DNA from: an uncultured Endomicrobiia bacterium
GTDB taxonomy: Bacteria; Elusimicrobiota; Endomicrobiia; DTEH01
Reading direction: 5' to 3'
Assembly (NCBI GenBank): GCA_938074745.1
Contig: CALJEJ010000006.1
Coordinates: 18,043 to 82,042 of the forward strand
Length of the DNA stretch: 64,000 nt
Positions 1,204 to 49,870 of this stretch are shown in pieces. Position numbers and translations under genes: made by a program. Position 1 is the first letter of the stretch. Each line of letters opens with the position of its first letter. The notes beneath the pieces are model-generated. The model was given only the letters and a program-made list of their open reading frames with translations, searched no databases and was not told where the DNA came from.

Positions 1204-1274
1204 ATATTTTTTGAACCGAAATACGCTGTTTTAACATCTAATTTAACGGAGTAGTTCAAAATCTGGAGGTGAAA

Positions 1275-4017: not shown

Positions 4018-4893
4018 ATGAATAAATATAGTGACCCTGAAATATTAAAACATTTAGACAAGATAATTTTTGAATTTAATCGTGATATAGAAGGTACACT
4101 TCCGGGTAGACACAGAAGTAAACTTATTGGTAAGTCGTTAGAGTTTGTCCAACATAGAGAATATGTTAAAGGAGATGATTTAAGATATATTGATTGGAAA
4201 GTTTATGGTAGGCGAGATAAATTTTTTGTTAAACAATACCACCAAGAAACGAACCTTGTGTGTTACATATTATTAGACTGTTCTTCTTCAATGTGGTATC
4301 CTTTAGAGAAAACAAAGTATGAATATGCTGGTGCGTTAGCTTCTTATATAAGTTACATTTTGTTAAACCAAAACGATTCTGTTGGTTTAATCAAATTTGA
4401 TAACCAAATTTTAAAAATTATCCAACCAAAATCTGGCCAAGAACAATATTATAGAATATTAGAAGAAATTAATTTAGAAACTTTTGGTGGAAAAAGTGAT
4501 TTTATAACTGTAATAAGTTTGTTAACTAAAAAATTAAGAAAATATTCGTTACTTATAATTATTTCCGACCTTATTTGTAGTCAAGAAAGTTTTCTTGTAG
4601 AGGCATTGAAAAAAATAGCATATTCAAAAATTAACATTATTGTTTTACACATAGTTTCTAAAGAAGAATATCTGTTAAATTTTGATTTAGAGAATGTTAC
4701 TTTTGAAGATGTGGAAGATAATACTAAAATTAAGACAAACATTGATGAAATAAAGTCGTTATATATTAAAGAATTTGACAGTTTACTTAAATATTATAAA
4801 ACAGAACTATATTCTGCAAATATTGGATATTTCTTTATAGACACATCTAAACCAATATTAGAAAATTTAGAATTAATAATTTACAGTCAATGA
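4018..4893 (+). CDS. DUF58 family protein (MoxR-associated vWA-like)
   Basis: Canonical DUF58 core: LIGKSLEFVQHREYVKGDDLRYIDWKVYGRRDKFFVKQYHQETNLVCYILLDCSSSM. The stop overlaps the next start (ATGA at 4890-4893). Confidence 0.8.
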   Translation: MNKYSDPEILKHLDKIIFEFNRDIEGTLPGRHRSKLIGKSLEFVQHREYVKGDDLRYIDWKVYGRRDKFFVKQYHQETNLVCYILLDCSSSMWYPLEKTKYEYAGALASYISYILLNQNDSVGLIKFDNQILKIIQPKSGQEQYYRILEEINLETFGGKSDFITVISLLTKKLRKYSLLIIISDLICSQESFLVEALKKIAYSKINIIVLHIVSKEEYLLNFDLENVTFEDVEDNTKIKTNIDEIKSLYIKEFDSLLKYYKTELYSANIGYFFIDTSKPILENLELIIYSQ

Positions 4894-6923
4894 TTTACTT
4901 TTATAATCCTTGGATATTTATTTTATTACCATTGATATTCTTACCTATATTATTACATCTTCTGTTTGAAAAAAAATCTCCAATAATTAAGTTCACATAT
5001 CTCCACTTAATAAATAAAATCTTAAAACAATTTGTCCCACGAAAACGAATTATAGATATAATTGTTTTAATTTTACGATGTCTAATAATTTTTTTAATAA
5101 TAACATATTTTGCCCGACCTGTAGGATATTTTAATCCTAAAAAAACATCTGCAATTAATATTATTTTTGCTATAGACAACTCGTTTTCTACAAAGTATAA
5201 AATAGGTAATATTTCAAAACTTGAAATGTTTAAAACATTAATAAAAAAATTGTTGAAGAGATTATCATATAAGAATGTAAGGTTTTCTACTATAATATTT
5301 AACGAAAATGTTTCACCACTGAATAGTAAGTTTGTGGTGTATAACTATGAAAATATTGCAAGTGTATTGGATAAAATTTCACCTACATATAAAGGGACTA
5401 ATTTATCTACACTGGTTCATTATGTGACAAGTATTTTTAATACTTTGGAATATAAAGATTCGCAAAACAAAGTTATTGTTTTAACAGACCTTGCAGAACA
5501 TATGTTGTCACAGAAAGAAGTGGTTATTTCCACATTTCCTCTGTATAATCAGATTGATTGGATATTTTGTTATCCTGATATATTAGGGACAAATTTTTAT
5601 GTTAAACAATTAGATATTAATAAACAAGAACCTGACATTGTGGAATTTAAGTTTGTTCCAGAAAGTAACATCAAAACTAAAACTGTTGTTAATGCAAAAT
5701 TGGTGATAAATGATACTCAAGTAGATACTATTGATATAAATTTTTCTCAAAAAGAATATAAATTTAATTACGTATTAACAAAAAATAGCAAATTTTACGG
5801 TTATATATCTTTACAAAATGATAATCTTAATGAAGATAATAATTTCTATTTTTCATTTGTAGACAAGGATAAAACACAACTGTTATGTATTGTTAACGAA
5901 CCGTTTTATATTAAAGGTATAGAAAGTAAAAAATATTATTTAGAAAAATTATCTTCTATAGGTTGGGATGTAGAAGTTATTCCTTATGAAGACGTTAATA
6001 AGGGATTTATTATAAATAAGATAAACTCAAAGGTAAAAAACATAGTTTTCGTAGATATGAATTCTTTTGAAGATATTATAGACACAACAAAACTCGAAGG
6101 CAAAAATGTCATAATTTTTCCATCTGAAAATTTGAATGTAGACTCCTATGAAAAACTTTTTAGTGGGTTAGAGTTTGTAGAACTGCAAGAAGGCAAAATA
6201 AACAATTTTAATATTTTGTTAGGTGAAGATGAACAATTTAATAATTTAGTATCACAGTTTGAGTATCAAAAAATTGTTGTTTTCCAAAAATATAGGTTGA
6301 CAATTACTTCTTCACAGAATGGTTGGAAGGTATTACTGAAATTTTCTGATGGTACACCGGCAGTGGTTAATAAAGGAAATATATATGTATTTTCGTTTTC
6401 AATTTCTAAGAAATGGAGCAATTTTGTATACAAACCACTTTTTTTAGGAATTATGAAATATATTATTGAAAGAAGTGAAAGTGAGACTAAGTATAAACAC
6501 TTTTATTTTGTTTCAGAACCAATTCCTATACTAGAAGTTTCTAAAGTATTTAGTCTTATAGAAAACAAATATGTTGATGAAGAGTTTTGGCAGAAATCGC
6601 CAGAACTAAAGATATACCGTCCTGGAATTTATAGAATAGAAACAGAAGATAAAAATCTTTTTGCAACACAGTACGTTTTTGGCATAAATATTTCACCTGA
6701 AGAAAGTAATATAAAACTTATTCCAAAAGATAAACTGAAAGATGTAATAAAAAAAATTCCAAAATGTAACGTAAGTTTTGTTAACATTCTTGAACATAAA
6801 AGTGAAGATGATATAATTAAACAATGTTTGGGTAAAGAATATTCACATAATTTGCTGAAATTGATAATTTTGTTGTTTTTAATAGAAACAATTCTTAGCA
6901 GAACAATGAGAAAAATGGTATGA
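4890..6923 (+). CDS. Membrane-anchored von Willebrand factor A (vWA) domain protein, BatA-like, with a roughly 350-aa C-terminal extension of unknown function
   Basis: Two N-terminal TM helices are followed by the MIDAS motif DxSxS (IIFAIDNSFSTKY) in vWA context. At 677 aa it is about twice the length of typical BatA. The stop overlaps the next start (6920-6923). Confidence 0.65.
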   Translation: MIYFYNPWIFILLPLIFLPILLHLLFEKKSPIIKFTYLHLINKILKQFVPRKRIIDIIVLILRCLIIFLIITYFARPVGYFNPKKTSAINIIFAIDNSFSTKYKIGNISKLEMFKTLIKKLLKRLSYKNVRFSTIIFNENVSPLNSKFVVYNYENIASVLDKISPTYKGTNLSTLVHYVTSIFNTLEYKDSQNKVIVLTDLAEHMLSQKEVVISTFPLYNQIDWIFCYPDILGTNFYVKQLDINKQEPDIVEFKFVPESNIKTKTVVNAKLVINDTQVDTIDINFSQKEYKFNYVLTKNSKFYGYISLQNDNLNEDNNFYFSFVDKDKTQLLCIVNEPFYIKGIESKKYYLEKLSSIGWDVEVIPYEDVNKGFIINKINSKVKNIVFVDMNSFEDIIDTTKLEGKNVIIFPSENLNVDSYEKLFSGLEFVELQEGKINNFNILLGEDEQFNNLVSQFEYQKIVVFQKYRLTITSSQNGWKVLLKFSDGTPAVVNKGNIYVFSFSISKKWSNFVYKPLFLGIMKYIIERSESETKYKHFYFVSEPIPILEVSKVFSLIENKYVDEEFWQKSPELKIYRPGIYRIETEDKNLFATQYVFGINISPEESNIKLIPKDKLKDVIKKIPKCNVSFVNILEHKSEDDIIKQCLGKEYSHNLLKLIILLFLIETILSRTMRKMV

Positions 6924-7681
6924 AAAGAAACAGGCGAAATAGGTTGTTAAGTTTTACAGCAGTTGTGTTGTTTGTAAGTTTTTTATTTTCTAGTGATAAA
7001 TTTGTTTTTACACAATTAAAATATAATGGTAATTGGGATCCGTATCCGCAGATATATTCAGATATATTAGAAATATTAACACTTACCACCAGTGTTCAAG
7101 TTAGTCCAAACCGCAGAATCATAGATTTGGATTTAAGTCCATATAATCTAAGAAAAGAATTATCATCTGCACCTTTTGTGATATTGTTAGGTAATGATGA
7201 AATAAAATTGTCTAATGAAGTAATTCTCATATTACGGGATTATATCATTAATGGGGGTACAATGTTTATTGAAGATATTTCGGAGTTACGTTATAGTAAG
7301 TTTGATTCTTCAATACGCAAAATTTTACGATTGATGTTTCCTGAATACAAATTAAAAAAGTCTACTCAGGAAACTGTAATAATGAAATCGTTTTATTTAA
7401 TAAGAAAAGTTACCGGTCGTGTGATATTAAACGATTATATTGAATATATAGAATACGAAAACCGTCCTGCTATAATCTATTCTCGCAACAACATAATTTC
7501 TTGTTGGGCGAGGGATAGGTTCGGAAAGTTTATTTATTCTTGTATTCCTGACGGTGAACCACAACGGTTTAATTCACAGAAGTTATTTTTGAATATAATT
7601 ATGTACTCTTTATGTGGAACATATAAAATGGACAAAGTTCACCAACCATTTATTGAAGAAAAGTTAAAACGAGGAAGATGA
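6920..7681 (+). CDS. Secreted protein, DUF4159-like (GATase1/ThuA-like fold, usually found next to vWA and DUF58 genes)
   Basis: N-terminal signal peptide (LLSFTAVVLFVSFLFS). The segment FVILLGNDEIKLSNEVILILRDYIINGGTMFIED resembles the class-I glutamine-amidotransferase-like core. The family assignment comes from context and pattern only. Confidence 0.35.
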   Translation: MKRNRRNRLLSFTAVVLFVSFLFSSDKFVFTQLKYNGNWDPYPQIYSDILEILTLTTSVQVSPNRRIIDLDLSPYNLRKELSSAPFVILLGNDEIKLSNEVILILRDYIINGGTMFIEDISELRYSKFDSSIRKILRLMFPEYKLKKSTQETVIMKSFYLIRKVTGRVILNDYIEYIEYENRPAIIYSRNNIISCWARDRFGKFIYSCIPDGEPQRFNSQKLFLNIIMYSLCGTYKMDKVHQPFIEEKLKRGR

Positions 7682-9819
7682 TATCAATAAATATTAATTT
7701 TATTTCAGTTTTATTTGTATTACTTTTTCTAATAACTACAGTATATTGGATTACAAGACCAACTTTTAAATTTAAATATTGGAAGTTATTTATTTTAAGA
7801 AGTATATTGGCGATATTACTGTTAACTTTATTATTTCAACTGAGATATAACATTGGTAATGTTAAAACAAAACCACAATTGAAACTATTGGTGGACACTT
7901 CATACAGTATGAAATTTAATAACAGAATAAACAAAGTCAAAGAATTTCTTAAGAAATATTTAGATGCATTAACCAAAGAAATGGATACTAGTATATACAT
8001 ATTTGATGAAAAACTGCACAAGGTGGATTCTATACACCAAATAACAATTTCTGCTAAGGGTACAAAAATTAATTCAGTTATAGAAGAAATTTTATATATG
8101 AGTAAAGACAATACAAACCAGACAATATTGTTATTTTCTGACGGTAAAAATGCTACTTTAGATTTGCCAGTTATAGAAAAAGAAAATGTTAGTATTATTC
8201 CAATAATATTTGAAGAGGATAATTTTAAAGATGTTTCAATATCTAATTTAAAATATAGTAGTTTAGGATTTAAAGATGTTAACTATGAAGTTGTTGTTAA
8301 ACTATTATGTTTTGGATATGAAAATCGTAATTGCAAAATTTTTTTAACTGACGTTAACTCTAAAACTACAGTTTGTGAGAAAGAAATTGTGTTGAAAGAA
8401 GGTGAAAACGAAGTGAAATTAAATTTTATCCCTAAAGAAATTGGGAAGGTTAAATATAAACTGGCAGTCCAACATTTTCCACAAGAAATAACTTATGAAA
8501 ATAACGAGGTAAATATTAATGTAGAAATAAAGAAAAATAAAATAAGAATATTATATCTTTGTGGCCAACCGTCACCTGAATATTATTTTTTACGCAACTT
8601 AATAAAAAATGATCCTAATCTTGATTTAGTATCCTTTGTAATTTTACGTAATCCTGAATCCGTAGTTATAGTTCCTGAAGATGATTTAGCATTAATTCCG
8701 TTTCCTACCTATGACATTTTTGTAAAAGAACTTTTTAATTATGATTTAGTTATATTCGAAAATTTTTCTTATAGAAAATTTGCAATACCAGTTGGGTACT
8801 TAGAGAATATTCGTCAGTTTGTTCTTTCAGGCGGCGGATTTATAATGATTGGTGGGGATAAATCGTTTTCGTTAGGTGGGTATAAATTTACACCTATTGA
8901 AGAAATTTTACCTGTGAAACTTGTTGAGATAGAAAAATTTGTTACTATGGAGTATCGTCCTGAAATAGTTAATTTTAATGACAAAATGTTAAAAGTTGTA
9001 GATGACGCTGAATTAAATAAACTAATTTGGAAAACAATACCACCACTAAACAATTATCAAACTGTAGAAAGACAACAAAATTCTACTGTTTTAATGACAT
9101 ATCGCAATGTTCCTATAATGTCTTATTGGGTTAAAGGTAAAGGTAGAGTGTTTGCTTGTGGAACAAATAGTACTTATAGATGGGTTTTAGGAAATATTCT
9201 TTCTACTGAATATGATTATAAAAAAGCATATGTTCAATTTTGGAAAAATGTAATCTATTGGTGTAGTGGTGCCGAAGATATAAAAAGTTTGTACATAGTT
9301 ACAGACAGTGACGAATATTTAATAAATGAGGTAGTAAAATTTAAATTATATTATAACATTGCTGACACTGAAATAACACAGTTGCCTGAAGTATATATTA
9401 TTCAACCAGATATGAGTAAGAAAAAATTAGAATTAAAAAAAATATCTTTAGGAACATATACAGGCGAATTTGTTGGCTCAATGATAGGTGAATATAGTAT
9501 AGTTGCTGTAGTAAATAAGTACAAAGATACTCTAAAAGATATAAAAAAAATTGTAGTGAAACAAATAAACATTAACAATCTACAAGAAATTGCTGATTTA
9601 AAATTAGACAAAGAATATTTAACAAAAATTGCTAAGTTGACCAACAACGAACCTGTTCTTTCTACAAAGTTTAATATACAAAAATTTATTTCAGATGTTA
9701 AAAATAGACATAAAAAATATTTTGTTAATTTTGTAGAAGTATACCAAAAACCGTTTCTAGGAATATTATTTATAGGATTGTTCTTAATTGAGATATTTTT
9801 AGGGAAATTTATGAAATGA
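7678..9819 (+). CDS. Membrane protein with vWA domain plus a glutamine-amidotransferase-like (ThuA/DUF1355-type) domain and a C-terminal TM anchor
   Basis: N-terminal TM helices; MIDAS DxSxS (KLLVDTSYSMKF). A later segment reads DLVIFENFSYRKFAIPVGYLENIRQFVLSGGGFIMIGGDKSFSLGGY. The C-terminal hydrophobic helix is FLGILFIGLFLIEIF. ATGA overlaps occur at both ends. Confidence 0.6.
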   Translation: MISININFISVLFVLLFLITTVYWITRPTFKFKYWKLFILRSILAILLLTLLFQLRYNIGNVKTKPQLKLLVDTSYSMKFNNRINKVKEFLKKYLDALTKEMDTSIYIFDEKLHKVDSIHQITISAKGTKINSVIEEILYMSKDNTNQTILLFSDGKNATLDLPVIEKENVSIIPIIFEEDNFKDVSISNLKYSSLGFKDVNYEVVVKLLCFGYENRNCKIFLTDVNSKTTVCEKEIVLKEGENEVKLNFIPKEIGKVKYKLAVQHFPQEITYENNEVNINVEIKKNKIRILYLCGQPSPEYYFLRNLIKNDPNLDLVSFVILRNPESVVIVPEDDLALIPFPTYDIFVKELFNYDLVIFENFSYRKFAIPVGYLENIRQFVLSGGGFIMIGGDKSFSLGGYKFTPIEEILPVKLVEIEKFVTMEYRPEIVNFNDKMLKVVDDAELNKLIWKTIPPLNNYQTVERQQNSTVLMTYRNVPIMSYWVKGKGRVFACGTNSTYRWVLGNILSTEYDYKKAYVQFWKNVIYWCSGAEDIKSLYIVTDSDEYLINEVVKFKLYYNIADTEITQLPEVYIIQPDMSKKKLELKKISLGTYTGEFVGSMIGEYSIVAVVNKYKDTLKDIKKIVVKQININNLQEIADLKLDKEYLTKIAKLTNNEPVLSTKFNIQKFISDVKNRHKKYFVNFVEVYQKPFLGILFIGLFLIEIFLGKFMK

Positions 9820-11897
9820 AAAGAGTTGTACTGTTTATTTTTATAATGAGTGTTTTTATATTTTTAATATACACAGTTTCTCCATCAGTTAATAGTGGTG
9901 ACAGTGGTGAATTTATCACTACTTCAATCACTTTAGGTATTGCACATAGTCCTGGTTATCCGTTGTATTCCTTGGTAGGGAAAATTTTTAGTTATATAAT
10001 TCCATTTGGCAACTATGCGTATAGGATAAATTTGATGAATACAGTTTTTGTAATCTTTGTCATAGTAATATTATTTTCTTTTGCAAATAATAGGAATATT
10101 TCAAGTAATGTTTTGGATATAATAAATATTCTTTCCACAATAGGTGTTTTGATATTTTCAAAATCTTTCTGGCGTAACTCTGTGCAAACCGAAGTGTTCA
10201 TATTAAATGTATTGTTTGTAGTATTAATAATCTTTATTTTGTTCTTACCAATTAAATTCGTAAAAAAATGGTGTTTAATATCATTTCTTTTTGGTATTTC
10301 TTTAGGAAACCACCATACAATAGTTTTTCTTTTGCCTGGGTTGGTATATTTATTTTTCTCTTCAAAGTCAGAGTTAACAAATTTATGGAAAGATATTTTT
10401 TTGTTTATAATCTTTTTCGTGATAGGTATAAGTGTATATACTATTCTCCCTTTAAGGTCACAAAAAAATCCCGGTCTTGACTGGGGTAACACTGAAAAAA
10501 TTGTAAATTTGTACCGTGTAATAACAAGGAAAGATTATGGTACATTCCAACTTACGGTAGAAAAACCTTTGCCACGAAATTTTGTTAATATAGTTCAACA
10601 AGTAAAACGATATATAAAACATACCTTAAATGATATTCCTTTAGCTATTGTGATTCTATGTATTTTAGGAATAGTTATAGTTTATAATGAAGATAAAAAT
10701 AAATGTTTTGCCTTAAGTACAACATTATTTCTTTGCGGGATTGGTTTTTTTATTTTAAGTAATCTTCCTTTTGAACCTATTCACGATGGAATTTTGGAAC
10801 GGTTTTATATCTTCCCCAATACGATAGTATGTATTTTTACGTTGTTATTTATAACTTCTAAAAAAAATTTTTTTTCTACTAAATTAAGAAAAGTTTTTTT
10901 AACTATAGTTTTGCTATTGTGTTTTGTGTGGAATATAACAAAAAATTATCCCTTTTGCAATTTAAGAAGTTATTACTTAAACTATGATTATGGAATGAAC
11001 ATTTTACGAACCATAGTTCCTAATGGGATATTGTTTATGGATGGTGGAGATGATACTTTTTATACCTTAGCATATTTACAATTTGCTGAAGGACGACGAA
11101 AAGATATTAGTTTACACGATCGTGGTGGTGTAGTGTTTAAAAATATTTATGGGGAAGATTTTAGACAACTCACTAAGGAAGAAAAAGAAATCAGAAGACA
11201 ACAAATAGAATCAAGTTTCTTATCGCGCAGGACAGTTTATTATTCTACTTTTAACAAAAATATTTTACCAAAAGCAACTCTTTTTCCTGTTGGAGCGTTG
11301 TACAAAGCTGTGCCAAAAGATACACGTGAAAAAATATTTCCTCACTACAGTTTTGAGTTTTATTCGTTAAGAAGTGTATATCAAGAATATGACGACTACC
11401 GTAGCAAAGCTCTTTGTCCTATATATGATTTTATTGAAGCTACAAATATTGAACCTATACAGACCAAAATTGATTTGTTAAAATACACATACCTCAGATG
11501 GCCAGAAGTGGATTGGTTAAAAAATAATGTTAGTATAGAATTGCATAATCTTGGATATAAAATGTTCAACGAAGGTGATTATAACATAACAGAAAAAATT
11601 TATAAATTTTTAATTTATATCAACCCTAAAGATATTTACGCATTACTTAACTTAGGTGTAACATATGAACGGTTAGGGAAGCTAGATTTAGCAGAACAAA
11701 CTTATAATACAGCATCTAAAATTGATCCAACAAATCCAAATACATATTATAATTTAGCAGTGCTCTACTGGAAAAAAAATGATTGGGATAATGTAATAAA
11801 ATATTTTAACAAAGTATTACAGTTACAGCCAGATAATAAAGAAGTAAAAAATTTTTTATTAAAAGCCGAAATTGAGAAAAATAAGTTAAATAAATGA
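9816..11897 (+). CDS. DUF2723 (TMEM260-like, GT-C fold protein O-mannosyltransferase-like) membrane protein with C-terminal TPR repeats, paralog 1
   Basis: Multi-pass N-terminal domain with the DUF2723/TMEM260 signatures GDSGEF...GIAHSPGYPLY and LPLRSQKNPGLDW...TRKDYGTF. The C-terminus carries TPR repeats (YYNLAVLYWKKNDWDNVIKYFNKVLQLQPDN). Confidence 0.7.
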   Translation: MKRVVLFIFIMSVFIFLIYTVSPSVNSGDSGEFITTSITLGIAHSPGYPLYSLVGKIFSYIIPFGNYAYRINLMNTVFVIFVIVILFSFANNRNISSNVLDIINILSTIGVLIFSKSFWRNSVQTEVFILNVLFVVLIIFILFLPIKFVKKWCLISFLFGISLGNHHTIVFLLPGLVYLFFSSKSELTNLWKDIFLFIIFFVIGISVYTILPLRSQKNPGLDWGNTEKIVNLYRVITRKDYGTFQLTVEKPLPRNFVNIVQQVKRYIKHTLNDIPLAIVILCILGIVIVYNEDKNKCFALSTTLFLCGIGFFILSNLPFEPIHDGILERFYIFPNTIVCIFTLLFITSKKNFFSTKLRKVFLTIVLLLCFVWNITKNYPFCNLRSYYLNYDYGMNILRTIVPNGILFMDGGDDTFYTLAYLQFAEGRRKDISLHDRGGVVFKNIYGEDFRQLTKEEKEIRRQQIESSFLSRRTVYYSTFNKNILPKATLFPVGALYKAVPKDTREKIFPHYSFEFYSLRSVYQEYDDYRSKALCPIYDFIEATNIEPIQTKIDLLKYTYLRWPEVDWLKNNVSIELHNLGYKMFNEGDYNITEKIYKFLIYINPKDIYALLNLGVTYERLGKLDLAEQTYNTASKIDPTNPNTYYNLAVLYWKKNDWDNVIKYFNKVLQLQPDNKEVKNFLLKAEIEKNKLNK

Positions 11898-13945
11898 AAA
11901 TTGAAAGTGTAATATTGTTAATTGCATTTATAACTAACATTTTTCTTATTGCGCCGACAGTAGGTGTTGGTGATACTGCAGAACTTGCCGGCGCAGCAGT
12001 AAATTATGGGATTGCACATTCGCCTGGGTATCCGTTGTTCTGTAATGTGTATAAAATATTTTCTGTAATCATACCGTTTGCTGAAAAAGGGTATAGATTA
12101 AATATAACATCTGCAATATTGGGATATTTAAGTATCTACATAATATGGAAGATAATTATTCATATCACACAAAATCGCATCTTGGGAATTATAGGAATTG
12201 TATTATTCTTTTCTATTGATACTGTGGTAAAACAAAACCAGATTAGCGAAGTGTTTGCATTAAATAATTTTATTATTGCAATACTGACTTATTTTTTAGA
12301 AGTCTCAAAATTTTCTGTTGAAAAAAAGTTTTATATCGTAATGTTTTTATTAGGGTTGGGGTTAGGGAATCAACATATTATAATATTTTTTATTCCAGCA
12401 GTTATTCTGTGGTTTTTAATAAAAGGTAAGATTTTTAGTTATATACGTTTACAATATAGACATAAAACATTTAATACGATACTTTTTGGTGTGATATTTT
12501 TTCTGTTAGGATTGAGTATATATTTATATGTCCCGTTAAGGTCACTTCAACAACCTCTTTATGATTGGGAAGACCCTGAAACTTTTGACAGGTTTATTTT
12601 TCTGTTTACTCGTGGTCGGTATGGTACATTTAGTTTAGCACAGGGTGGGAAGTTAAGCATAACCTTTTTAAAATTTCTCTATGGGATAAAACTGTTTTTT
12701 TACATTTTAGGTTGGTATGTCACTATTTTTTTTCTTGTGGGAGTAGTGTTGTTGCTTTTTCAATTTGTGAACAAAAAAGTAAAATTTTTAGAAACAAAAT
12801 TGTTTTGTTTAACAGCGACATATTTTTTAGGTCCGTGGATAATTACAATTTCAGGATTAAATGTTCCTACACCACATACAGTTTACATTTTAGAACGGTT
12901 GATATTTTCGTCTACAATTTTTGTGGTAATGTTCATTACAGTTTCATTGTATGAGATTGCTAACAGAAAATTGATAAATTATTCTATTATGTGTTTTTTA
13001 TCTTATTTTGTAGTAATGAATTTTTTAACCAATTTTAGCAGGAACGACTTTTTTTTGTATGATTATATTTCAAATTTCTTTAGAAATATTCCTTATAATA
13101 GTCTAGTGTTTTCAGACAAAGCAGACGAGTCAGAGTTCGGGTTCGCTTATTTTCAAAGAATTTTAGGCTTAAGGAAAGATGTAGAATTTATTGACTGCAA
13201 CGCTTCAGTTTCACGTAGTATTTATGGTGTAGAATATTATCGTATCTGGGGTAAACCAAGGTTGGAAATAAGAACTGCAGTAGAAACTAAAATAATAAAT
13301 TCTGTAACTAAACCGGTGTTTTATAATACACTTCTTCCAGAACAAACAGGAATAAAAAAATACAAGTTTGGTCTTTTGTATAGTACAAACCAGAGGAAAG
13401 AAAAGATTTATGATGAGTATTTTGTATTTCGTGAAATGAATATACTACAACCACGAGTTTTAGGATTGTATTTGACATATCTAAATTCTTTAGCACAGTA
13501 TTTCCTTGAGTTAGCACAGCAACAAAGAGAATTTGTTTTCAAAGCAAAAGATAAATTTTTTGAATTGTTTTTAATTACTAAAGATATAAAATATATGCTT
13601 TACATACCATATTATTTTTTTTCAATTGGTGAACTAAAAAGTGCACAAGAAGAATATATTAAATTGTTAAAATATCCAATGGATAAAGAAAATGCTAAAG
13701 AAATTATGAATAATATAGGTGTAGTTTATGAAAATCAAGGTGAATTTTATGAAGCAGAGAAATGGTATAAAAAAGTTTTAGAATTAGATCCCGAGTTTGA
13801 AAAAGCATATTATAACCTTGCAGTAGTATACTGGAAAATAGGACGTTACAAAGATGCAATAAAAATGTTTACAAAAGTTGTTCAACTGAACCCACAAAAT
13901 GTTGAAGCAAAAAAGTATTTGGTAGTGTTAAAACAAAAAATTTAA
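11894..13945 (+). CDS. DUF2723 (TMEM260-like GT-C) membrane protein with C-terminal TPR repeats, paralog 2
   Basis: GDTAEL...GIAHSPGYPLF; VPLRSLQQPLYDWEDPE...TRGRYGTFSL. The C-terminal TPR is YYNLAVVYWKIGRYKDAIKMFTKVVQLNPQN. The start overlaps the paralog 1 stop. Confidence 0.7.
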   Translation: MKIESVILLIAFITNIFLIAPTVGVGDTAELAGAAVNYGIAHSPGYPLFCNVYKIFSVIIPFAEKGYRLNITSAILGYLSIYIIWKIIIHITQNRILGIIGIVLFFSIDTVVKQNQISEVFALNNFIIAILTYFLEVSKFSVEKKFYIVMFLLGLGLGNQHIIIFFIPAVILWFLIKGKIFSYIRLQYRHKTFNTILFGVIFFLLGLSIYLYVPLRSLQQPLYDWEDPETFDRFIFLFTRGRYGTFSLAQGGKLSITFLKFLYGIKLFFYILGWYVTIFFLVGVVLLLFQFVNKKVKFLETKLFCLTATYFLGPWIITISGLNVPTPHTVYILERLIFSSTIFVVMFITVSLYEIANRKLINYSIMCFLSYFVVMNFLTNFSRNDFFLYDYISNFFRNIPYNSLVFSDKADESEFGFAYFQRILGLRKDVEFIDCNASVSRSIYGVEYYRIWGKPRLEIRTAVETKIINSVTKPVFYNTLLPEQTGIKKYKFGLLYSTNQRKEKIYDEYFVFREMNILQPRVLGLYLTYLNSLAQYFLELAQQQREFVFKAKDKFFELFLITKDIKYMLYIPYYFFSIGELKSAQEEYIKLLKYPMDKENAKEIMNNIGVVYENQGEFYEAEKWYKKVLELDPEFEKAYYNLAVVYWKIGRYKDAIKMFTKVVQLNPQNVEAKKYLVVLKQKI

Positions 13946-13950
13946 TTCCA

Positions 13951-16149
13951 ATGATATATTTAATTGTGTTCTTGAACATCTTTATAGTATATTTATGGAC
14001 AATTTTCCCAACAATAGCAGCGTACCGTGATTCAGCTGAGATGTGTTGTGTTGGTAAACTTTTAGGTATAGCGCATCCTCCAGGTTATCCATTATACACT
14101 TTGCTGATAAACATATTTTGGAAAATCCTACCTTTAGGAAATCTTGCCTACAGGTTTAACATTTTTTCAGCAATAGTCTCTGCATTAACTGGAATGTTAC
14201 TTTTTTATCTGTGTCGTAAAATACAGCGAAAGAGTATCTCTATGGTTACGATTTCGTTAATCGACAATATAATTATATACTTTTTTGTATTAATATTTGC
14301 TTTTGGTTATCTACAGTGGTATTTATCTTTAGTTTCAGAAATGTATACTTTTAATGTCCTATTTGGAATAGTTGTTTTGATATTAGCATATAGATATTTT
14401 TTTGAGACAGAGAAAAAATTAGTTTACATCTTATTTTTTATTTTTGGTTTAGGGTTAGGGAATAGGTTGGATTTAATATTATTTTTTCCAATAATATTTT
14501 TTGTATTTTGGGATTACATAAAAAAATCTCGTTATAAGATTAAAGAACTCATATTTTTATGTTTTGTGATTTTTTTAGGTTTGACAGTGTATTTATATCT
14601 TCCATTACGTTCTTCACAAAAACCGTTGTTAGACTGGAATCATCCTGCAGAACTTTCTCGTTTCTGGAGTTCATTGACAAGAAAAACACATGGTTCTACA
14701 TTGGATATGTTATCTTTGAGTTATCGTCCAGCAGAAAACTTTTTAGCAGGAATAAAATTATATTTCAAACATATAATTGAAAATATCACTATTTTTGGCT
14801 TGATAATAGTTTTATTAGGAAGCAAAAATTTAGTAAAACAAAATTTTGTATTTTTTGTTATTACATTATTATGCTGGTTGATAAGTTGTGTATGGTTCAT
14901 TTACAAAGCCAACATGCCACCAAATCCCCATGCAATGGCAATTTTAGAAGCACATTTTTTACTCCCAAATTTGATAATATTTCTATGGTTATTTTATGGT
15001 ATTCTTGAGATTACAAAAAAATTTTTGTCTAAATTTTACATAAAATTTGTTTTAATATTAGTTATGGTATTGTGTATAATGTATAACCTAAAAAATAACA
15101 TCTACAAATTAAATAAGAGGAACCATTTTTATGCATATGACTATACAACAAATTTATTTAGAAGTGTTCCAGATGATAGTTTAGTGCTTATAAAAGAAGA
15201 TGTTCAATTATTTTCTTGTTGGTATAGAAAATATATAGAAAAATTTAGGCCGAAAGTTTATGTTATAGCATCTGGTCTTGCAGGAGCAGAATGGTATGTG
15301 TCTATGTTTCAGAGATATCTTTCAGAAATAGGTGCGACTAAACAGATATTTTTTTGCCGTTTGGATGATAACTTAGGTTGGGATAAGTTTATTTCAGAAA
15401 ATAAGAAGATTAGTAATAAGATATTCGTTACCCACAATGTAGAGTTTGGTCAACTTAAAAATTATAAACTTTTTCCTGTAGGGTTATGTTCCGAGATATG
15501 TAGTTTAGAAGAATATCCCTCCACAAAACATAACTACAAAATACTTTCAGAGGTTTTACAAGAGGAAATTTATATTTATAGAAATGAATATCTTTACGAT
15601 TTAGACAAAGAATTTTTTTCTTCTGATATTGTAGAAGAATACAGCAAAGCACATAGTATCACCGGAGATTATTTAAGAAACCAACAGAATTTTGTTTCGT
15701 GTATTAAAGAATATAAATCATCAATACTAATGAATCCAGATTTTCCAGTCAACTATTTTGATTTAGGATATGTATATTTCAGTATGAAAAACTACAATCT
15801 TGCAGAAAAGTTTTATACATATGCAGTAAGAAAGTATGAAAACTATCTTTTATTGGCTCAGAAGTATAATGCATTACCCGATGTAATAAAAAATTATAAA
15901 GAACAAACAGCGAATGCATATTTACACTTAGGAGTAGTATCAGAAAGATTAGGTAAACTTGATTTTTCTGTTGAATGTTATAATTCTGCTTTGGGACACA
16001 ACCCTAATTTTGCTGATGCATATTATAATTTAGGTGTTGTATACTGGCATAAAAAAGATTGGGAAAAAGTAAGATATTATTTTAACCAAACTTTAAAAAT
16101 AAATCCTAACCATTCGTTAGCAAAATTTTATCTTGAAAAACTTCAATGA
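13951..16149 (+). CDS. DUF2723 (TMEM260-like GT-C) membrane protein with C-terminal TPR repeats, paralog 3 (divergent N-terminal motif)
   Basis: YRDSAEM...GIAHPPGYPLY (the HPPGYP form); LPLRSSQKPLLDWNHPAE...TRKTHGST. The C-terminal TPR is YYNLGVVYWHKKDWEKVRYYFNQTLKINPNH. Confidence 0.7.
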   Translation: MIYLIVFLNIFIVYLWTIFPTIAAYRDSAEMCCVGKLLGIAHPPGYPLYTLLINIFWKILPLGNLAYRFNIFSAIVSALTGMLLFYLCRKIQRKSISMVTISLIDNIIIYFFVLIFAFGYLQWYLSLVSEMYTFNVLFGIVVLILAYRYFFETEKKLVYILFFIFGLGLGNRLDLILFFPIIFFVFWDYIKKSRYKIKELIFLCFVIFLGLTVYLYLPLRSSQKPLLDWNHPAELSRFWSSLTRKTHGSTLDMLSLSYRPAENFLAGIKLYFKHIIENITIFGLIIVLLGSKNLVKQNFVFFVITLLCWLISCVWFIYKANMPPNPHAMAILEAHFLLPNLIIFLWLFYGILEITKKFLSKFYIKFVLILVMVLCIMYNLKNNIYKLNKRNHFYAYDYTTNLFRSVPDDSLVLIKEDVQLFSCWYRKYIEKFRPKVYVIASGLAGAEWYVSMFQRYLSEIGATKQIFFCRLDDNLGWDKFISENKKISNKIFVTHNVEFGQLKNYKLFPVGLCSEICSLEEYPSTKHNYKILSEVLQEEIYIYRNEYLYDLDKEFFSSDIVEEYSKAHSITGDYLRNQQNFVSCIKEYKSSILMNPDFPVNYFDLGYVYFSMKNYNLAEKFYTYAVRKYENYLLLAQKYNALPDVIKNYKEQTANAYLHLGVVSERLGKLDFSVECYNSALGHNPNFADAYYNLGVVYWHKKDWEKVRYYFNQTLKINPNHSLAKFYLEKLQ

Positions 16150-17786: not shown

Positions 17787-17825
17787 AAACGTAACTTTTT
17801 TCAAAAAAATGGAGGTGTACAAAAT

Positions 17826-18947: not shown

Positions 18948-18966
18948 ATCTGTAGAATAAATTTAT

Positions 18967-21900
18967 ATGAATGTTAACGAGTATATAAAAAAAGCAAAAT
19001 TATATAGAACAACATTTTTAATTGTTCGCTATACAGTAACCACACTGAATACTATAGTAGGATGTTTTATTCTAAGTGCGTTGGTTGACGAAATTTTCCC
19101 TTTGCCGATAATCGTATTTCATATATACTGGTTTTTTATTCTCGCTTTAATAACAATTTTTTTTATAAATTTAGTATTACAACTTATCAATCTATACAAA
19201 AATCCTAAACAATATTTACAAAATGAATTAAATAAATATCCATTGTTAGATACCAAAGACAGTATAATAACTTCAGCAGAGTTAGAACAAAAACTTGAAT
19301 ATAAAGATATAAACTTTTCTAAAGAATTAGCAGAAAAGTATATAGAAAACATAATTTCAAAATTGTCCACTTTAGATTTAAAAAAAATTGTTGGCTTAAA
19401 TAAAGTATTAAAAGTTGTACCTATTAACGTTGTTTTAATATTGTTAATAATTACTCTTTACGCATTTCCACCTTTTATTCTTAAAGAGAGCGTATACAAA
19501 ATACTTTTTACTCGTAAACCTGAAATTTTGGGTTTAACGATCTATCCTAAAAATATAAAAGTTCCACTAGGGAAAAGTTGTGAAATAAAAGTTCTCGTTG
19601 ATAAACTTTATGAGTTTTATATTCCAATATTATATTTGAAATTTTACGGTACTCATCAATGGATAAGGGTAAATTTTACGAAGTATGAAATTATTTCTAA
19701 TAGAAAAATTTATATATATAAAATTGAAAATGTGGAGAACAAAATATTTTATAAGATACATTTTCGCGGGATAAGTTCAAAAGTGTATGTAATAGAACCT
19801 ATCGTTTATCCTGCAGTATCCAAACTTTCAATTTGGGTAGAACCACCGAAATATACTTCTTTAAAACCAATAGAACTACAAAGTTTTAATGAGGTTAAAT
19901 ATTTATTTGGTAGTAAAATAAAATTTGATGGCGAAACTAATAAAGAAATTGCAAAGATAAAATTGATAACTTCAAAAGGACAAGAAATAAAAATAAATGT
20001 AAAAAACAAAAATATGTTTTCTGGTGAATTCGTCGCTATAGAAAATATGGATATATGGTTTGATATTTTAGATACGGAAAATTTAAAAAATATAGATGTT
20101 GTAAAATATAGAATTAATGTTATAAAAGACCAACATCCTGAAATAAAAATTATTTCCCCTGAAGATGAAATTATAGTAGCTCAGAATAGTAAAATTACAT
20201 TAATTTACTCTGCAAAAGATGATATTGGGATCTCACAAATAAATTTGAATTATTACATAGAGAATAAAAAGTATAATAAACAAGTTTGTATAAAAAAATA
20301 TAGCTCTAATATTTGCGAAATTATAGATGAATATACATTTGATTTATCAAATTTACCCTTAAATTTTGGTGATGTAATTATTTACTATTTAACTGTTTAT
20401 GATAACGACACAGTTTCAGGTCCTAAGTCAAACATTAGTGTGAAACATAAAATTGAAATTTTTAGTTTTGAAAAACAACATCAAATGATTGAAAGACAAG
20501 TTAACGAAGTTATAGATAAAATGTTAGATTATTTATCACGAGAAATTGAATTTAAAGAACAGTTGGATAGATTAACCACTACCACAATAGATATCTCTGA
20601 AATAGATAAACTGATAAACAAAAAACAGTTGTTGAACAAAGAGTTTGAACAGTTCACTAATCAAATGAACGATATCTTATCACAGATGGCTTATGACCCT
20701 TACACTTCAGTAGATACATATATAGAGTTTAAAAGTTTTTTAACAAATATGGAAAATATTTCACAATATAGTAATCCTATGTTAATAGATAGATTAAGAA
20801 ATAAAGATATTAATAAAGCACAAACTATACAACAGGAAATTGTTGATACTTTAGAACGATTATGCTCTTTAACTACACAAATTATGAAAAAACAGAATAT
20901 GGAAAATATTGCAAATATTGCAAATGAGACATATACTTCATTAGAGCAATTGATCAATGAACTTAAAAATACTGATACAAAAATTTCTTCAGAACAACTG
21001 ACAAAATTAAATAATTTACTTTCAGAGATTGAAGAAAAACTAAAAAAAATAGCGAATATGTTACAAAACCAGCCACAATCTTTACCTGAGGAATTTATTA
21101 ATCGTAGAGATGTAAAAAATATAGATTTAGTTTCTCCACAAGAAATGTTACAAAAATTATATTCTGCAATATCTATGGGAGATATACATTCTGCATTAAA
21201 ATATGCACAACAAATGTTAACTCAGTTAGAAAGTATAATGAATATTCTTGAACAAGCAAATTCTGATATACTATCTTCAACTAGTAGTAGTTTAAAAAAA
21301 GAACTTGAAAGGTTAATGTCCGACCTTGATAATTTAATTAAATCAGAAGAAGACATTTATTCAAAAACTAAAAATTTGTTTGATTACAAACTTAACGAAT
21401 TATTAAAGAAACAAGAATCTATATTGTCAGAATTGATAAAAGATATTAACATAATAATTTCAAAAATAAATTATGTCAATTCTATAGAGGAATTGAAAAA
21501 AATAAATAATTATCCACAGTATCTATCAACAAGCCAACAGGTGTTAAAAAAACTATCAGATATTTCTTCAGAAATACATAAGAAAAAATTAATTCAAACA
21601 AAAGTGTGGTTAAAAGAAGCAATACAACTTTGGGAGATGAACTATAATATCGTTTCGCTATTAGATAAACAACTTTATTCTATAATAATAAAAGAGACAG
21701 AAGAAATATTAAACTTGATGAAAAAATTATACGATAAATTTGACTTTGAACCAAAGATCAAATTATCTCCAGAAGCTGTCAACCAAAACAACAATCTTAT
21801 TCTTGAACAACAAAAAGTTTCTAAAGCAACACAGAAATTTTATTTAGAACTAAAAAATTTTGGTAAAAAAAGTTTTATGATAACCACACAAGATTTATTT

Positions 21901-22275
21901 AATGTTAAAACAGCAAATAATAAAATGGATCAAACGATAATTTCTTTAGAGAACCAAGATTTTGATTTGGCATTAGAAAACGAAAATACAGCTATAAACT
22001 TACTTTCAGAATTACGTAATAAGTTTTCTGATATAACTCAACAGTTACAACAAATGGAACAATTGTTAGGCAAACCGATGGGTAGCAAAATACAATATAA
22101 ATCATTACCATCTGGCCAATACGGCGTTTTGTTCAGTCGAGTAAAGTTGCCTTCAGTTAAAGATTATATTCCACCAAAAGAACTACGAGAAGATATAATA
22201 AGATCGTTAAGTGAAAAATATCCTATAGAATATAATAAAATAATCCAACGGTATTATAAGGAACTGTTAAAATGA
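18967..22275 (+). CDS. Large membrane-anchored protein of unknown function (N-terminal TM hairpin, beta-rich middle region, roughly 550-aa C-terminal coiled coil)
   Basis: 1102 aa. Two N-terminal TM helices, residues about 180-520 rich in beta-strand/Ig-like patterns, then a long heptad-rich region to the C-terminus. No catalytic motif recognised. Confidence 0.5.
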   Translation: MNVNEYIKKAKLYRTTFLIVRYTVTTLNTIVGCFILSALVDEIFPLPIIVFHIYWFFILALITIFFINLVLQLINLYKNPKQYLQNELNKYPLLDTKDSIITSAELEQKLEYKDINFSKELAEKYIENIISKLSTLDLKKIVGLNKVLKVVPINVVLILLIITLYAFPPFILKESVYKILFTRKPEILGLTIYPKNIKVPLGKSCEIKVLVDKLYEFYIPILYLKFYGTHQWIRVNFTKYEIISNRKIYIYKIENVENKIFYKIHFRGISSKVYVIEPIVYPAVSKLSIWVEPPKYTSLKPIELQSFNEVKYLFGSKIKFDGETNKEIAKIKLITSKGQEIKINVKNKNMFSGEFVAIENMDIWFDILDTENLKNIDVVKYRINVIKDQHPEIKIISPEDEIIVAQNSKITLIYSAKDDIGISQINLNYYIENKKYNKQVCIKKYSSNICEIIDEYTFDLSNLPLNFGDVIIYYLTVYDNDTVSGPKSNISVKHKIEIFSFEKQHQMIERQVNEVIDKMLDYLSREIEFKEQLDRLTTTTIDISEIDKLINKKQLLNKEFEQFTNQMNDILSQMAYDPYTSVDTYIEFKSFLTNMENISQYSNPMLIDRLRNKDINKAQTIQQEIVDTLERLCSLTTQIMKKQNMENIANIANETYTSLEQLINELKNTDTKISSEQLTKLNNLLSEIEEKLKKIANMLQNQPQSLPEEFINRRDVKNIDLVSPQEMLQKLYSAISMGDIHSALKYAQQMLTQLESIMNILEQANSDILSSTSSSLKKELERLMSDLDNLIKSEEDIYSKTKNLFDYKLNELLKKQESILSELIKDINIIISKINYVNSIEELKKINNYPQYLSTSQQVLKKLSDISSEIHKKKLIQTKVWLKEAIQLWEMNYNIVSLLDKQLYSIIIKETEEILNLMKKLYDKFDFEPKIKLSPEAVNQNNNLILEQQKVSKATQKFYLELKNFGKKSFMITTQDLFNVKTANNKMDQTIISLENQDFDLALENENTAINLLSELRNKFSDITQQLQQMEQLLGKPMGSKIQYKSLPSGQYGVLFSRVKLPSVKDYIPPKELREDIIRSLSEKYPIEYNKIIQRYYKELLK

Positions 22276-40408: not shown

Positions 40409-40440
40409 TATAATTAAATTTGCTGCCAATTAATTCTTAT

Positions 40441-44839: not shown

Positions 44840-44851
44840 TAACAATAACTG

Positions 44852-47364: not shown

Positions 47365-47368
47365 GAAA

Positions 47369-49866: not shown

Positions 49867-49870
49867 AAAT

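Follow-up and report, generated by a model that had tools for sequence, protein, structure and literature searches.

Glycosyltransferases and operons related to the locus

The closest characterised relative of the proteins described here is human TMEM260 (CAZy GT117; PDB 9RQL/9RQM/9RQN), a protein O-mannosyltransferase of the ER that acts on the IPT domains of plexins, cMET and RON. Many GT-C enzymes act on lipids or glycans rather than on proteins, and so it is with ArnT, AftA/B/D and the ALG enzymes. Some protein O-mannosyltransferases are models for an obligate hetero-oligomer, such as yeast Pmt1-Pmt2 and POMT1-POMT2.

A recent preprint on human TMEM260 (bioRxiv 10.64898/2026.03.17.711096), whose mutagenesis provides the residue numbering used below, describes as essential an Asp and a His of the first loop, an Arg of the donor loop and an Asp of the Rossmann-like domain. 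Asp52 of the first loop is assigned to donor positioning, while the catalytic base is Asp441, in the luminal Rossmann-like domain; the base of GT39 enzymes, on the contrary, is proposed to be in loop 1. TMTC1-4 (GT105) are ER cadherin O-mannosyltransferases, paralogs with partly distinct clients (PMC10214176, PMC11292533).

The Bat/MoxR-DUF58-VWA "aerotolerance" operons (Bacteroides BatA-E; Leptospira; Borrelia BB0170-BB0176) have a function that is still undefined, and GT-C glycosyltransferases have not been reported in their classical forms (PMC3557215, PMC5700661). The VWA domain of the Borrelia BatA-like protein is periplasmic (PMC5700661). Our literature search returned no characterised bacterial DUF2723/TMEM260-like protein, and DUF2723 is scarcely mentioned there, in agreement with the sequence-only reading of this DNA, which had called the bacterial members uncharacterised.

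Three tandem TMEM260-like paralogs

The window (the whole stretch of 64,000 nucleotides that was analysed) contains at 9816-16149 three back-to-back open reading frames of 683-732 aa, all on the + strand, as had been noticed earlier: P1 (9816..11897, 693 aa), P2 (11894..13945, 683 aa) and P3 (13951..16149, 732 aa). All three exceed the Pfam gathering score for PF11028 (TMEM260-like, formerly DUF2723), with E values of 4.9e-29, 6.0e-20 and 1.6e-23, respectively. Their N-terminal 560-590 aa match human TMEM260 (PDB 9rql_A) with E values of 1.3e-43, 8.3e-34 and 6.1e-37, across both the membrane core and the Rossmann-like domain (residues 5-523 in the case of P3). The AlphaFold (AF2) models (pLDDT 96, pTM 0.93; pLDDT 96.2 for P3) consist of a GT-C membrane core of about 11 TM helices, a five-stranded Rossmann-like domain and nine TPR-type helices, and their top structural neighbours include ALG12, ArnT and AftB. 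These lines of evidence agree with the earlier assignment to DUF2723/TMEM260-like GT-C proteins with C-terminal TPRs; the family membership is far beyond chance. Judging from their sequences, P1-P3, which are 29-31% identical overall in pairwise comparisons, are additional bacterial members of the known family GT117.

The three proteins share with TMEM260 not only PF11028 but also the same three-part architecture (GT-C core, Rossmann-like domain, C-terminal TPRs), except that their TPR domain is longer, with about nine helices versus five. The counts of Lys and Arg in short loops, made by hand on the model helices, are compatible with an N-in, C-out topology, and the organism is a diderm, since BamA, Skp and LpxC are encoded in the window. 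While the human enzyme uses dolichyl-P-Man, the donor of bacterial, periplasm-facing enzymes would have to be a bacterial polyprenyl-phosphate sugar. No gene for a polyprenyl-phosphate-sugar synthase was found in the operon or among the scanned ORFs of the window (the scan covered the window outside 43286-50974 and 63201-63971).

The earlier comparison with TMTC1-4 is valid as far as the logic is concerned, luminal TPRs attached to a GT-C core, in several paralogs per genome, but it does not reflect a family relationship: P1-P3 match PF11028 and not the TMTC models, and the TMTCs lack a Rossmann-like domain bearing the catalytic base. Unlike the PMT/POMT proteins (GT39, including actinobacterial Pmt), P1-P3 lack MIR domains, and a match to PMT_2, under threshold, is seen for P2 alone.

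Motifs and functional residues

The first-loop motifs GDSGEF, GDTAEL and RDSAEM, the core GIAH(S/P)PGYPL(Y/F) and the sequence YYNL(A/G)V(L/V)YW in the last TPR are all present in P1-P3, as previously described. Other patterns need to be amended. The loop (L/V)PLRSxQxPLxDWxxPE is exact in P2 and only loosely followed in P1 and P3, the core common to the three proteins being PLRS-x3-P-x2-DW. The final TPR, which had been called near-identical, is so over a core of 9 residues, but the full repeats are 36-50% identical. P3 does differ from P1 and P2 in carrying HPPGYP; this is the common form, however, found also in human TMEM260 and in most bacterial homologs, and it is HSPGYP of P1 and P2 that is the variant. 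Likewise, P3 has an Arg before the acidic pair, but this results from a one-residue insertion relative to "GD" rather than from a simple substitution of Gly. The Arg belongs to a "YRD" signature that defines the subfamily of P3, is kept in 105-106 of 110 P3 orthologs, and also occurs in an unlinked Elusimicrobial clade.

The equivalents of D52, H67, R264 and D441 are all kept in the alignment of P1, P2 and P3. The acidic motif of the first loop, which the sequence-only reading took to be catalytic, is thus conserved in all three, but its Asp52 serves donor positioning in the human enzyme, whose base is Asp441 (bioRxiv 10.64898/2026.03.17.711096). The equivalents of the human functional residues are D29, E32, H44, R238, Y241, R329 and D412 in P1, and D27, E30, H42, R240, Y243, R335 and D411 in P2, so that Y267 and R355 have a counterpart in both. 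P3 keeps D27, E30, H42, R244 and D417, but has His at position 247 (human Tyr267) and Ala at position 334 (human Arg355). Across 114 P1 and 110 P3 orthologs, the equivalents of D52, H67, R264 and D441 vary little or not at all; among about 100 homologs across phyla, those of D52, H67 and D441 are kept, and that of R264 is present in most, not all.

Age and divergence of the paralogs

In a neighbour-joining tree, the Elusimicrobiota orthologs of each paralog cluster in a clade of their own (bootstrap 99 for P1, 97 for P2 and 100 for P3); P1 and P2 are sister clades (96) and P3 groups with other YRD clades (84). The triplication is ancient, not a recent duplication. The gene order P1-P2-P3-P4 (P4 is described below) is kept in loci down to 32-36% identity. 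About 30 P1-type and P3-type matches have a longest contig of identical length, which indicates that they are probably found together on one contig. Locus L003, from one relative, has its P3 ortholog broken into two ORFs and lacks P4, hence the full gene set is not indispensable everywhere.

That long-diverged paralogs are maintained in separate orthologous groups fits non-redundant, diversified roles, and to this extent the tree supports the earlier proposal of a diversified enzyme set. The clearest clade-specific differences are found beside the catalytic base, where each clade has its own set of fixed residues (GGDD, RADE or K-E-D-V-Q, the signature of the P2 clade being "DRADE.EF"), and in the Asn ladder of the TPRs, which points to differences in acceptor more than in donor. 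It is most likely, from these sequence differences, that P1-P3 serve different acceptor sequences. As for the other part of the proposal, P3 may use another sugar, but this is weakly suggested by two positions, the equivalents of Tyr267 and Arg355, of which the first varies within the P3 clade and the second among bacterial homologs generally.

Instead of three independent enzymes with separate clients, P1-P3 could be the subunits of one obligate hetero-oligomeric enzyme, like the pairs mentioned above. We find this rather unlikely. In each of the three proteins, the residues for donor binding and catalysis are complete, a P3-type gene stands by itself in locus L022, and L011, L016 and L018 carry further paralogs of the YRD type that are unlinked. 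Moreover, TMEM260 binds donor and acceptor as a single chain, and no partner subunit is described in the part of the preprint that we could consult (bioRxiv 10.64898/2026.03.17.711096).

A conserved envelope operon

Whereas TMEM260 is encoded by a single gene, the three paralogs are followed by a fourth GT-C gene, and the four are embedded in a MoxR/Bat-like operon, entirely on the + strand. This tightly packed operon begins with a DUF58 protein (4018..4893; E 4.3e-35), followed by a 677-aa BatA_N double-transmembrane and VWA protein (4890..6923; Pfam BatA E 1.9e-10, VWA_2; TIGR02226), a DUF4159 protein of 253 aa (6920..7681; E 8.8e-24) and a membrane-anchored GATase1_like/VWA protein of 713 aa (7678..9819; GATase1_like E 2.4e-11). 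Downstream of P3 are P4 (16146..17786, 546 aa), a PMT_2-type GT-C without TPR (PMT_2 E 9.7e-13 and PMT E 4.9e-5, both above cut-off), and P5 (17826..18947, 373 aa), a GT28 glycolipid-synthase-like protein (MGDG_synth E 1.9e-19) that resembles diglucosyl-diacylglycerol synthase (NCBIfam PRK13609 E 2.4e-42, under cut-off). A DUF4175 membrane protein of 1102 aa (18967..22275; E 2.5e-17), with a weak match to the bacterial Ig-like Big_7 (20.6 bits vs a cut-off of 24.1), precedes a Peptidase_MA_2 and TPR protein of 534 aa (22272..23876; Pfam), with which the run of overlapping genes ends.

The first loop of P4 reads "YDEHVH", and its comparison with the P1 profile gives an hhalign probability of 87%. 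ATGA overlaps are found at the GATase1-like/P1, P1/P2 and P3/P4 junctions, as well as between the DUF58 gene and the next and at the Peptidase_MA_2-TPR gene; P2 and P3 are separated by 5 nt. Translational coupling of P1-P3 is suggested by this geometry.

The context is kept phylum-wide in Elusimicrobiota loci, with P4 directly after P3 in L001, L002, L005, L006, L009, L013 and L081. As in the Bat operons, a DUF58 protein and a BatA_N-VWA protein are accompanied by further VWA and TPR proteins, and a MoxR AAA_3 ATPase lies directly upstream of DUF58 in deeper Elusimicrobial relatives (L005, L006, L007 and L009). In contrast to these operons, four GT-C genes are inserted here after the GATase1-like gene and ahead of DUF4175, and in the window the operon has no adjacent MoxR gene. 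In four loci, all from other phyla (L043, L066, L072, L076), DUF4175 adjoins a DUF2723 gene, and the DUF4159-DUF4175-DUF2723 adjacency is seen in a Gemmatimonadales MAG, an Eisenbacteria MAG and two unclassified MAGs. The operon setting of P1-P3 is notable and previously undescribed.

The human sequon GPxx[GA]GGxx[ST] was not found in any large protein of the window, including those encoded nearby, and the Ser/Thr/Pro-rich linkers that are typical of bacterial O-glycoproteins were not seen in the operon proteins. It may be that P1-P3 glycosylate a non-protein acceptor (an envelope glycan, a lipid or a glycolipid), their TPRs docking proteins within an envelope complex. This would agree with the lack of a recognisable target in the window or operon proteins, with the lipid- and glycan-modifying enzymes among the top structural neighbours, and with the presence of the GT28 gene in the same operon of this lineage. 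We nevertheless regard this possibility as improbable, even slightly more so than the hetero-oligomer. P5 occurs only in Endomicrobia-like loci (present in L001-L003 and L081, absent from L005-L013), and the deeper lineages retain the trio without it; the Asp of the Rossmann-like domain, which deprotonates the acceptor Thr in TMEM260, is invariant; and the combination of GT-C core, Rossmann-like domain and TPRs with Asn is that of the peptide-gripping "hand" described for TMEM260 (bioRxiv 10.64898/2026.03.17.711096).

Last, it is very doubtful that one or more copies, P3 in the first place, are catalytically dead pseudo-enzymes kept as a scaffold or substrate receptor: P3 has no equivalent of Arg355 and usually none of Tyr267, its TPRs have a degenerate ladder (D, H, N) and it is split in L003, but 106-110 of the 110 P3 orthologs have kept D27, H42, R244 and D417, Arg355 is variable among bacterial homologs generally and its human R355A mutant retains about 20% activity (bioRxiv 10.64898/2026.03.17.711096), and His is a conservative sugar-binding stand-in for Tyr, with which it alternates inside the P3 clade (His in 82/110, Tyr in 28/110).

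Proposed function

We consider it probable that P1-P3 are three functional, non-redundant GT117 inner-membrane glycosyltransferases of diderm Endomicrobiia-like Elusimicrobiota, with peptide acceptors. By homology with human TMEM260, the approximately 11 TM helices of each enzyme would bind a polyprenyl-phosphate-hexose at the periplasmic face, the sugar-phosphate being held jointly by the Asp-x-x-Glu and the His of the first loop and by the Arg, with a Tyr or His, from the loop that follows TM7. The periplasmic Rossmann-like domain would supply the Asp that acts as catalytic base, while the C-terminal TPR domain would grip an extended polypeptide, one Ser or Thr of which would be glycosylated with inversion. 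P1-P3 would be co-transcribed with the fourth GT-C (PMT_2) inside the MoxR/DUF58/BatA-VWA/DUF4159/DUF4175 envelope operon; their clients or partners are most plausibly to be sought among the periplasm-exposed proteins of that operon. The presence of P1-P3 in a conserved, MoxR/Bat-like envelope operon suggests an unstudied periplasm-facing system of protein glycosylation.

Three tandem members of the TMEM260 family

The G+C content of the window is 28% and its plus strand carries almost all of the genes. Three consecutive ones, P1 (9816–11897, 693 amino acids), P2 (11894–13945, 683 amino acids) and P3 (13951–16149, 732 amino acids), code for proteins in which a GT-C membrane core is combined with TPR. 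P1 overlaps the gene upstream of it, P2 overlaps P1 and the gene that follows overlaps P3, each time in an ATGA, while 5 nt separate P2 from P3. The motifs by which a sequence-only reading had described these proteins are all found in the ORFs. A GTG-started ORF of 159 amino acids, antisense within P1 (10013–10492, minus strand), was judged most likely spurious from its position.

The Pfam model PF11028, formerly DUF2723 and now named 'Protein O-mannosyl-transferase TMEM260-like', scores 101.8 bits with P1 (E 4.9e-29), 72.2 bits with P2 (E 6.0e-20) and 83.9 bits with P3 (E 1.6e-23), for a cut-off of 24.2 bits; the C-termini match multiple TPR models of Pfam. Once the TPR region is removed, the sole PDB sequence that each protein matches is human TMEM260 (9rql_A), over residues 6–438 of P1 (E 1.3e-43), 15–435 of P2 (E 8.3e-34) and 5–523 of P3 (E 6.1e-37), in alignments that span TM1 to the luminal domain. 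The orthologs in L081, an Elusimicrobial locus from another genome, carry precomputed TMEM260_N and TMEM260_2 matches. The close homologs named by NCBI, which all come from Elusimicrobiota/Endomicrobiia MAGs, are called 'DUF2723 domain-containing protein', 'protein O-mannosyl-transferase family' or 'glycosyltransferase family 117 protein'. These matches, and the acidic Asp of the first loop, kept in all three proteins, bear out the assignment to DUF2723/TMEM260 made from the sequence alone. P1, P2 and P3 are new, correctly classifiable members of the known family GT117; this classification is solid, while their function and specificity are wholly inferred.

The resemblance to the TMTC family (GT105) is an analogy only: in the Pfam scan P1–P3 match no TMTC-specific model, but PF11028 instead. 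Nor do they have the features of the PMT/POMT family (GT39), a PMT domain along with luminal MIR domains. In the same scan P1 and P3 match neither PMT nor PMT_2, P2 scores 22.2 bits with PMT_2, under the cut-off of 26.1, and MIR domains are matched neither by P1–P3 nor by P4, the PMT_2-type gene that comes after P3.

Functional residues and fold

TMEM260 was found to be an O-mannosyltransferase by way of its DUF2723 and PMT_2 matches, in a paper that mentions 'distant homologs in bacteria' (PMC10214176). Its role in protein O-mannosylation was recognised only in 2023 and its structure is the subject of a 2026 preprint (bioRxiv 10.64898/2026.03.17.711096). According to this preprint, mannose is contacted by D52 and H67 of the first luminal loop, Y267 of the donor-loading loop and R355 of TMH10; R264 binds the phosphate, D441 of the Rossmann-like domain serves as catalytic base, and the TPR domain has an Asn ladder that recruits the acceptor peptide in extended form. 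Activity is lost in the D441A, D52A, H67A, R264A and Y267A mutants, and about 20% of it is retained in R355A.

We rebuilt residues 31–554 of the human chain from HMMER alignments, checked the numbering against the preprint, and aligned the chain with P1–P3 and 98 homologs from 80 genomic loci. The equivalents of D52 are D29 in P1 and D27 in both P2 and P3, those of H67 are H44, H42 and H42, those of R264 are R238, R240 and R244, and those of D441 are D412, D411 and D417 (in P1, P2 and P3, respectively). Y267 corresponds to Y241 in P1, Y243 in P2 and H247 in P3, and R355 to R329, R335 and A334. The donor-loading loop thus has its Arg in the three proteins and its Tyr in P1 and P2, His247 being a conservative variant in P3.

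Each of the six positions is conserved in 113–114 of 114 P1 orthologs, and the core formed by the Asp, His, Arg and Asp equivalent to D52, H67, R264 and D441 is conserved in 106–110 of 110 P3 orthologs; the Asp equivalent to D441 is invariant in both sets. At position 247, 82 of the P3 orthologs have His and 28 have Tyr; at position 334, 97 have Ala, 12 have Pro and none has Arg. In the alignment of homologs, the equivalents of D52, H67 and D441 are nearly universal across other phyla. The position of R355 varies widely among bacterial homologs and the human R355A mutant is still partly active, so this residue is not a strict marker of the family. With this conservation all three copies look catalytically competent, and P3 is a variant that has been conserved rather than a copy in decay.

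Highly confident AlphaFold2 models built on ortholog alignments (pLDDT 96.2 and pTM 0.93 for P3, 96.0 and 0.93 for P1) have about eleven membrane helices, a five-stranded alpha/beta domain, Rossmann-like, with helices flanking its strands, and nine TPR-type helices. They match the 'wrist-palm-fingers' organisation described for TMEM260 in the preprint, with a TPR region that is longer in P1 and P3. A Foldseek search against a PDB set devoid of 9RQL–9RQN returned TPR proteins and PglB (TM about 0.4) and nothing else. Lys and Arg counts in the short loops, made by hand on the helices of the models, favour a cytoplasmic N-terminus, which would place the first loop, the Rossmann-like domain and the TPR on the periplasmic side. 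BamA, Skp and LpxC, encoded at 58–62 kb of the window, show that the organism is a diderm.

The window also contains part of a cell-division/cell-wall cluster (MraW, 40420–41313; a PBP transpeptidase, 41590–43302). Its long ORFs are nearly all on the plus strand and the cumulative GC skew climbs monotonically from 1 to 64000, which suggests that it probably lies inside one replichore. Elsewhere (34481–36157, plus strand), a polytopic membrane protein of 558 amino acids with about 11 hydrophobic segments and no Pfam match has a weak profile similarity by hhalign (probability 53%, E 1.3e-4) to the GT-C core of the P1 family, and may be another GT-C-like enzyme.

Age and divergence of the paralogs

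The pairwise identity of P1–P3 is 29–31% overall, with 31% in the membrane core, 20–25% in the middle domain and 30–38% in the TPR region; their last TPR are 36–50% identical in protein and 56–70% in DNA. Scanning one genome per species gave 80 loci. Nine Elusimicrobial loci, and L081 as an independent tenth, share the order DUF58 - BatA_N/VWA - DUF4159 - GATase1-like - P1 - P2 - P3 - PMT_2 - (GT28) - DUF4175, which persists down to 32–36% identity to P1. For each of P1–P3, its own counterpart outscores the other two paralogs two- to five-fold.

In a neighbour-joining tree of 102 sequences, the P1, P2 and P3 clades have bootstrap values of 99, 97 and 100; P1 and P2 are sisters (96), and P3 groups with two unlinked Elusimicrobial clades that have a 'YRD' signature in the first loop (84). 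These groupings imply that at least two ancient events gave rise to the trio, which has been retained since. Recent tandem duplication or gene conversion is rejected, considering the identity of about 30%, the 56–70% DNA identity of the last TPR and the deep clade to which each paralog belongs.

The sequence beside the catalytic base is characteristic of each clade: 'DGGDDTFY' for P1, 'DRADE.EF' for P2 and '(K/R)EDVQLFS' for P3. These signatures fall exactly at the positions by which human TMEM260 contacts the acceptor, R439-G440-D441-P443 in the preprint (bioRxiv 10.64898/2026.03.17.711096). The Asn ladder of the TPR is complete in P1 (N578/N612/N646), partial in P2 (N607/N641, in the pattern -/N/N) and mostly replaced in P3 (D604/H659/N693). 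The signatures and the ladders argue for different acceptor preferences of P1, P2 and P3. The case for a different donor in P3 is weak, only His247 and Ala334 bearing on the donor.

The set is not the same everywhere. In L009, a locus from a groundwater Elusimicrobial MAG (9685–13583), the genes at the positions of P1 and P2 lie outside the P1 and P2 clades and the third is a true P3 ortholog, so the composition of the array has changed in some lineages. In L003, from an Endomicrobia MAG (14064–16200), the P3 ortholog is in two ORFs (188 and 514 amino acids) and the PMT_2 gene is absent; the cause is a frameshift, an assembly error or else a genuine loss of part of the set. Genomes of Firestonebacteria and Elusimicrobiota commonly hold several GT117 paralogs (for example L010, L024 and L026 in Candidatus Firestonebacteria, and L018/L031/L061 and L009/L023, each group from the same MAG), among them tandem and divergent pairs away from Bat-like genes.

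A probable MoxR/Bat-like operon

The genomic context of P1–P3 is absent from the sequence-only reading. The three genes are part of a tightly packed run of about 20 kb (4018–23876, plus strand) with seven ATGA overlaps, which codes for DUF58, BatA_N+VWA, DUF4159 and GATase1-like/VWA proteins, five glycosyltransferases, DUF4175 and a Peptidase_MA_2+TPR protein. With its DUF58, BatA_N+VWA and second VWA-like proteins the run is probably a MoxR/Bat-like operon, in the middle of which the glycosyltransferase genes stand. A MoxR AAA_3 ATPase gene lies directly upstream of DUF58 in L005, L006, L007 and L009, syntenic loci from deeper Elusimicrobial lineages, and not in the window, where ClpB (1269–3902) is upstream of DUF58. 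Between 3800 and 23790, a promoter and terminator scan found sites no more frequent than in shuffled sequence. The function of this class of operons remains undefined (PMC3557215); in one member, Borrelia BB0173, the VWA domain faces the periplasm (PMC5700661).

P4 (16146–17786, plus strand), a fourth gene for a GT-C glycosyltransferase, overlaps the stop codon of P3, has no TPR and reads 'YDEHVH' in its first loop. It passes the Pfam models PMT_2 (49.1 bits, E 9.7e-13) and PMT (23.4 bits, cut-off 22.7), has no significant match among PDB sequences and is conserved behind P3 in most syntenic relatives. Iterated HMM searches that started from P4 and from the TPR-peptidase ended up gathering GT-C and TPR proteins of every kind, and their results were set aside. 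P5 (17826–18947, plus strand), preceded by the only clear GGAGG site of the block, is a glycolipid-synthase-like GT28 gene of the MGDG_synth type, with a product whose resemblance to diglucosyl-diacylglycerol synthase stays under the NCBIfam cut-off. The gene is restricted to Endomicrobia-like loci (L001–L003 and L081) and absent from the deeper Elusimicrobial ones.

Outside Elusimicrobiota, in a Gemmatimonadales MAG, an Eisenbacteria MAG and two unclassified MAGs (L043, L066, L072 and L076, at about 6000–12700 in each), the gene next downstream of DUF4159 and DUF4175 codes for a DUF2723+TPR protein of about 900 amino acids, and a TPR-protein gene comes after it. DUF2723 is therefore linked to DUF4175 repeatedly, in different phyla. 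No better pointer to the partners or clients of these enzymes is available than this adjacency, which is only a hint.

Possible roles of the trio

We tentatively propose, as a reading with a modest chance of being right, that the GT117 trio and the PMT_2 enzyme form a dedicated periplasmic protein O-glycosylation module, whose clients would be the membrane-anchored VWA, DUF4159 and DUF4175 proteins of the operon, each paralog having its own extended sequon. The IPT sequon of human TMEM260 was found in none of the large ORFs of the window, and relaxed forms of it in none of the operon proteins, which also have no Ser/Thr/Pro-rich segments. No donor-synthesis gene was found in the operon or among the window ORFs scanned. 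It may be instead, and this too is doubtful, that P1, P2 and P3 make up a single hetero-oligomeric enzyme. That their acceptor is not a protein at all is unlikely. The conservation of the catalytic core throughout the P3 orthologs makes it very improbable that P3 is a pseudo-enzyme.

The family is large: the number of cluster representatives retrieved with the TPR-less core of P1 is 14,405 for E<=1e-3, 8,461 for E<=1e-10 and 1,132 for E<=1e-30. In the searchable literature, DUF2723 is mentioned only in the 2023 TMEM260 paper, in agreement with the earlier statement that the bacterial proteins are uncharacterised; GT117 in the sense of TMEM260 appears only in papers on eukaryotic O-mannosylation, and DUF4159 and DUF4175 only in passing, in unrelated papers. 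The bacterial relatives of TMEM260 thus appear entirely unstudied, and the phylum-wide occurrence of the trio within a Bat-like operon, an arrangement not described before, provides a testable hypothesis.

As the locus shows, the functional residues defined by mutagenesis are older than the split between bacteria and eukaryotes. The locus supplies an acceptor site in three versions that have diverged naturally and can be compared, and it connects the GT117 family with the MoxR/DUF58/VWA 'Bat-like' envelope operon and with DUF4175, in more than one phylum. If this connection is not functional, P1–P3 are ordinary, correctly annotatable GT117 paralogs; if it is, two sets of proteins whose function is unknown acquire a concrete hypothesis that can be tested. 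Should the trio and the PMT_2 enzyme indeed glycosylate proteins of the operon, this would be the first bacterial protein O-glycosylation pathway of the TMEM260 type to be described, and the first mechanistic handle on Bat-like operons.
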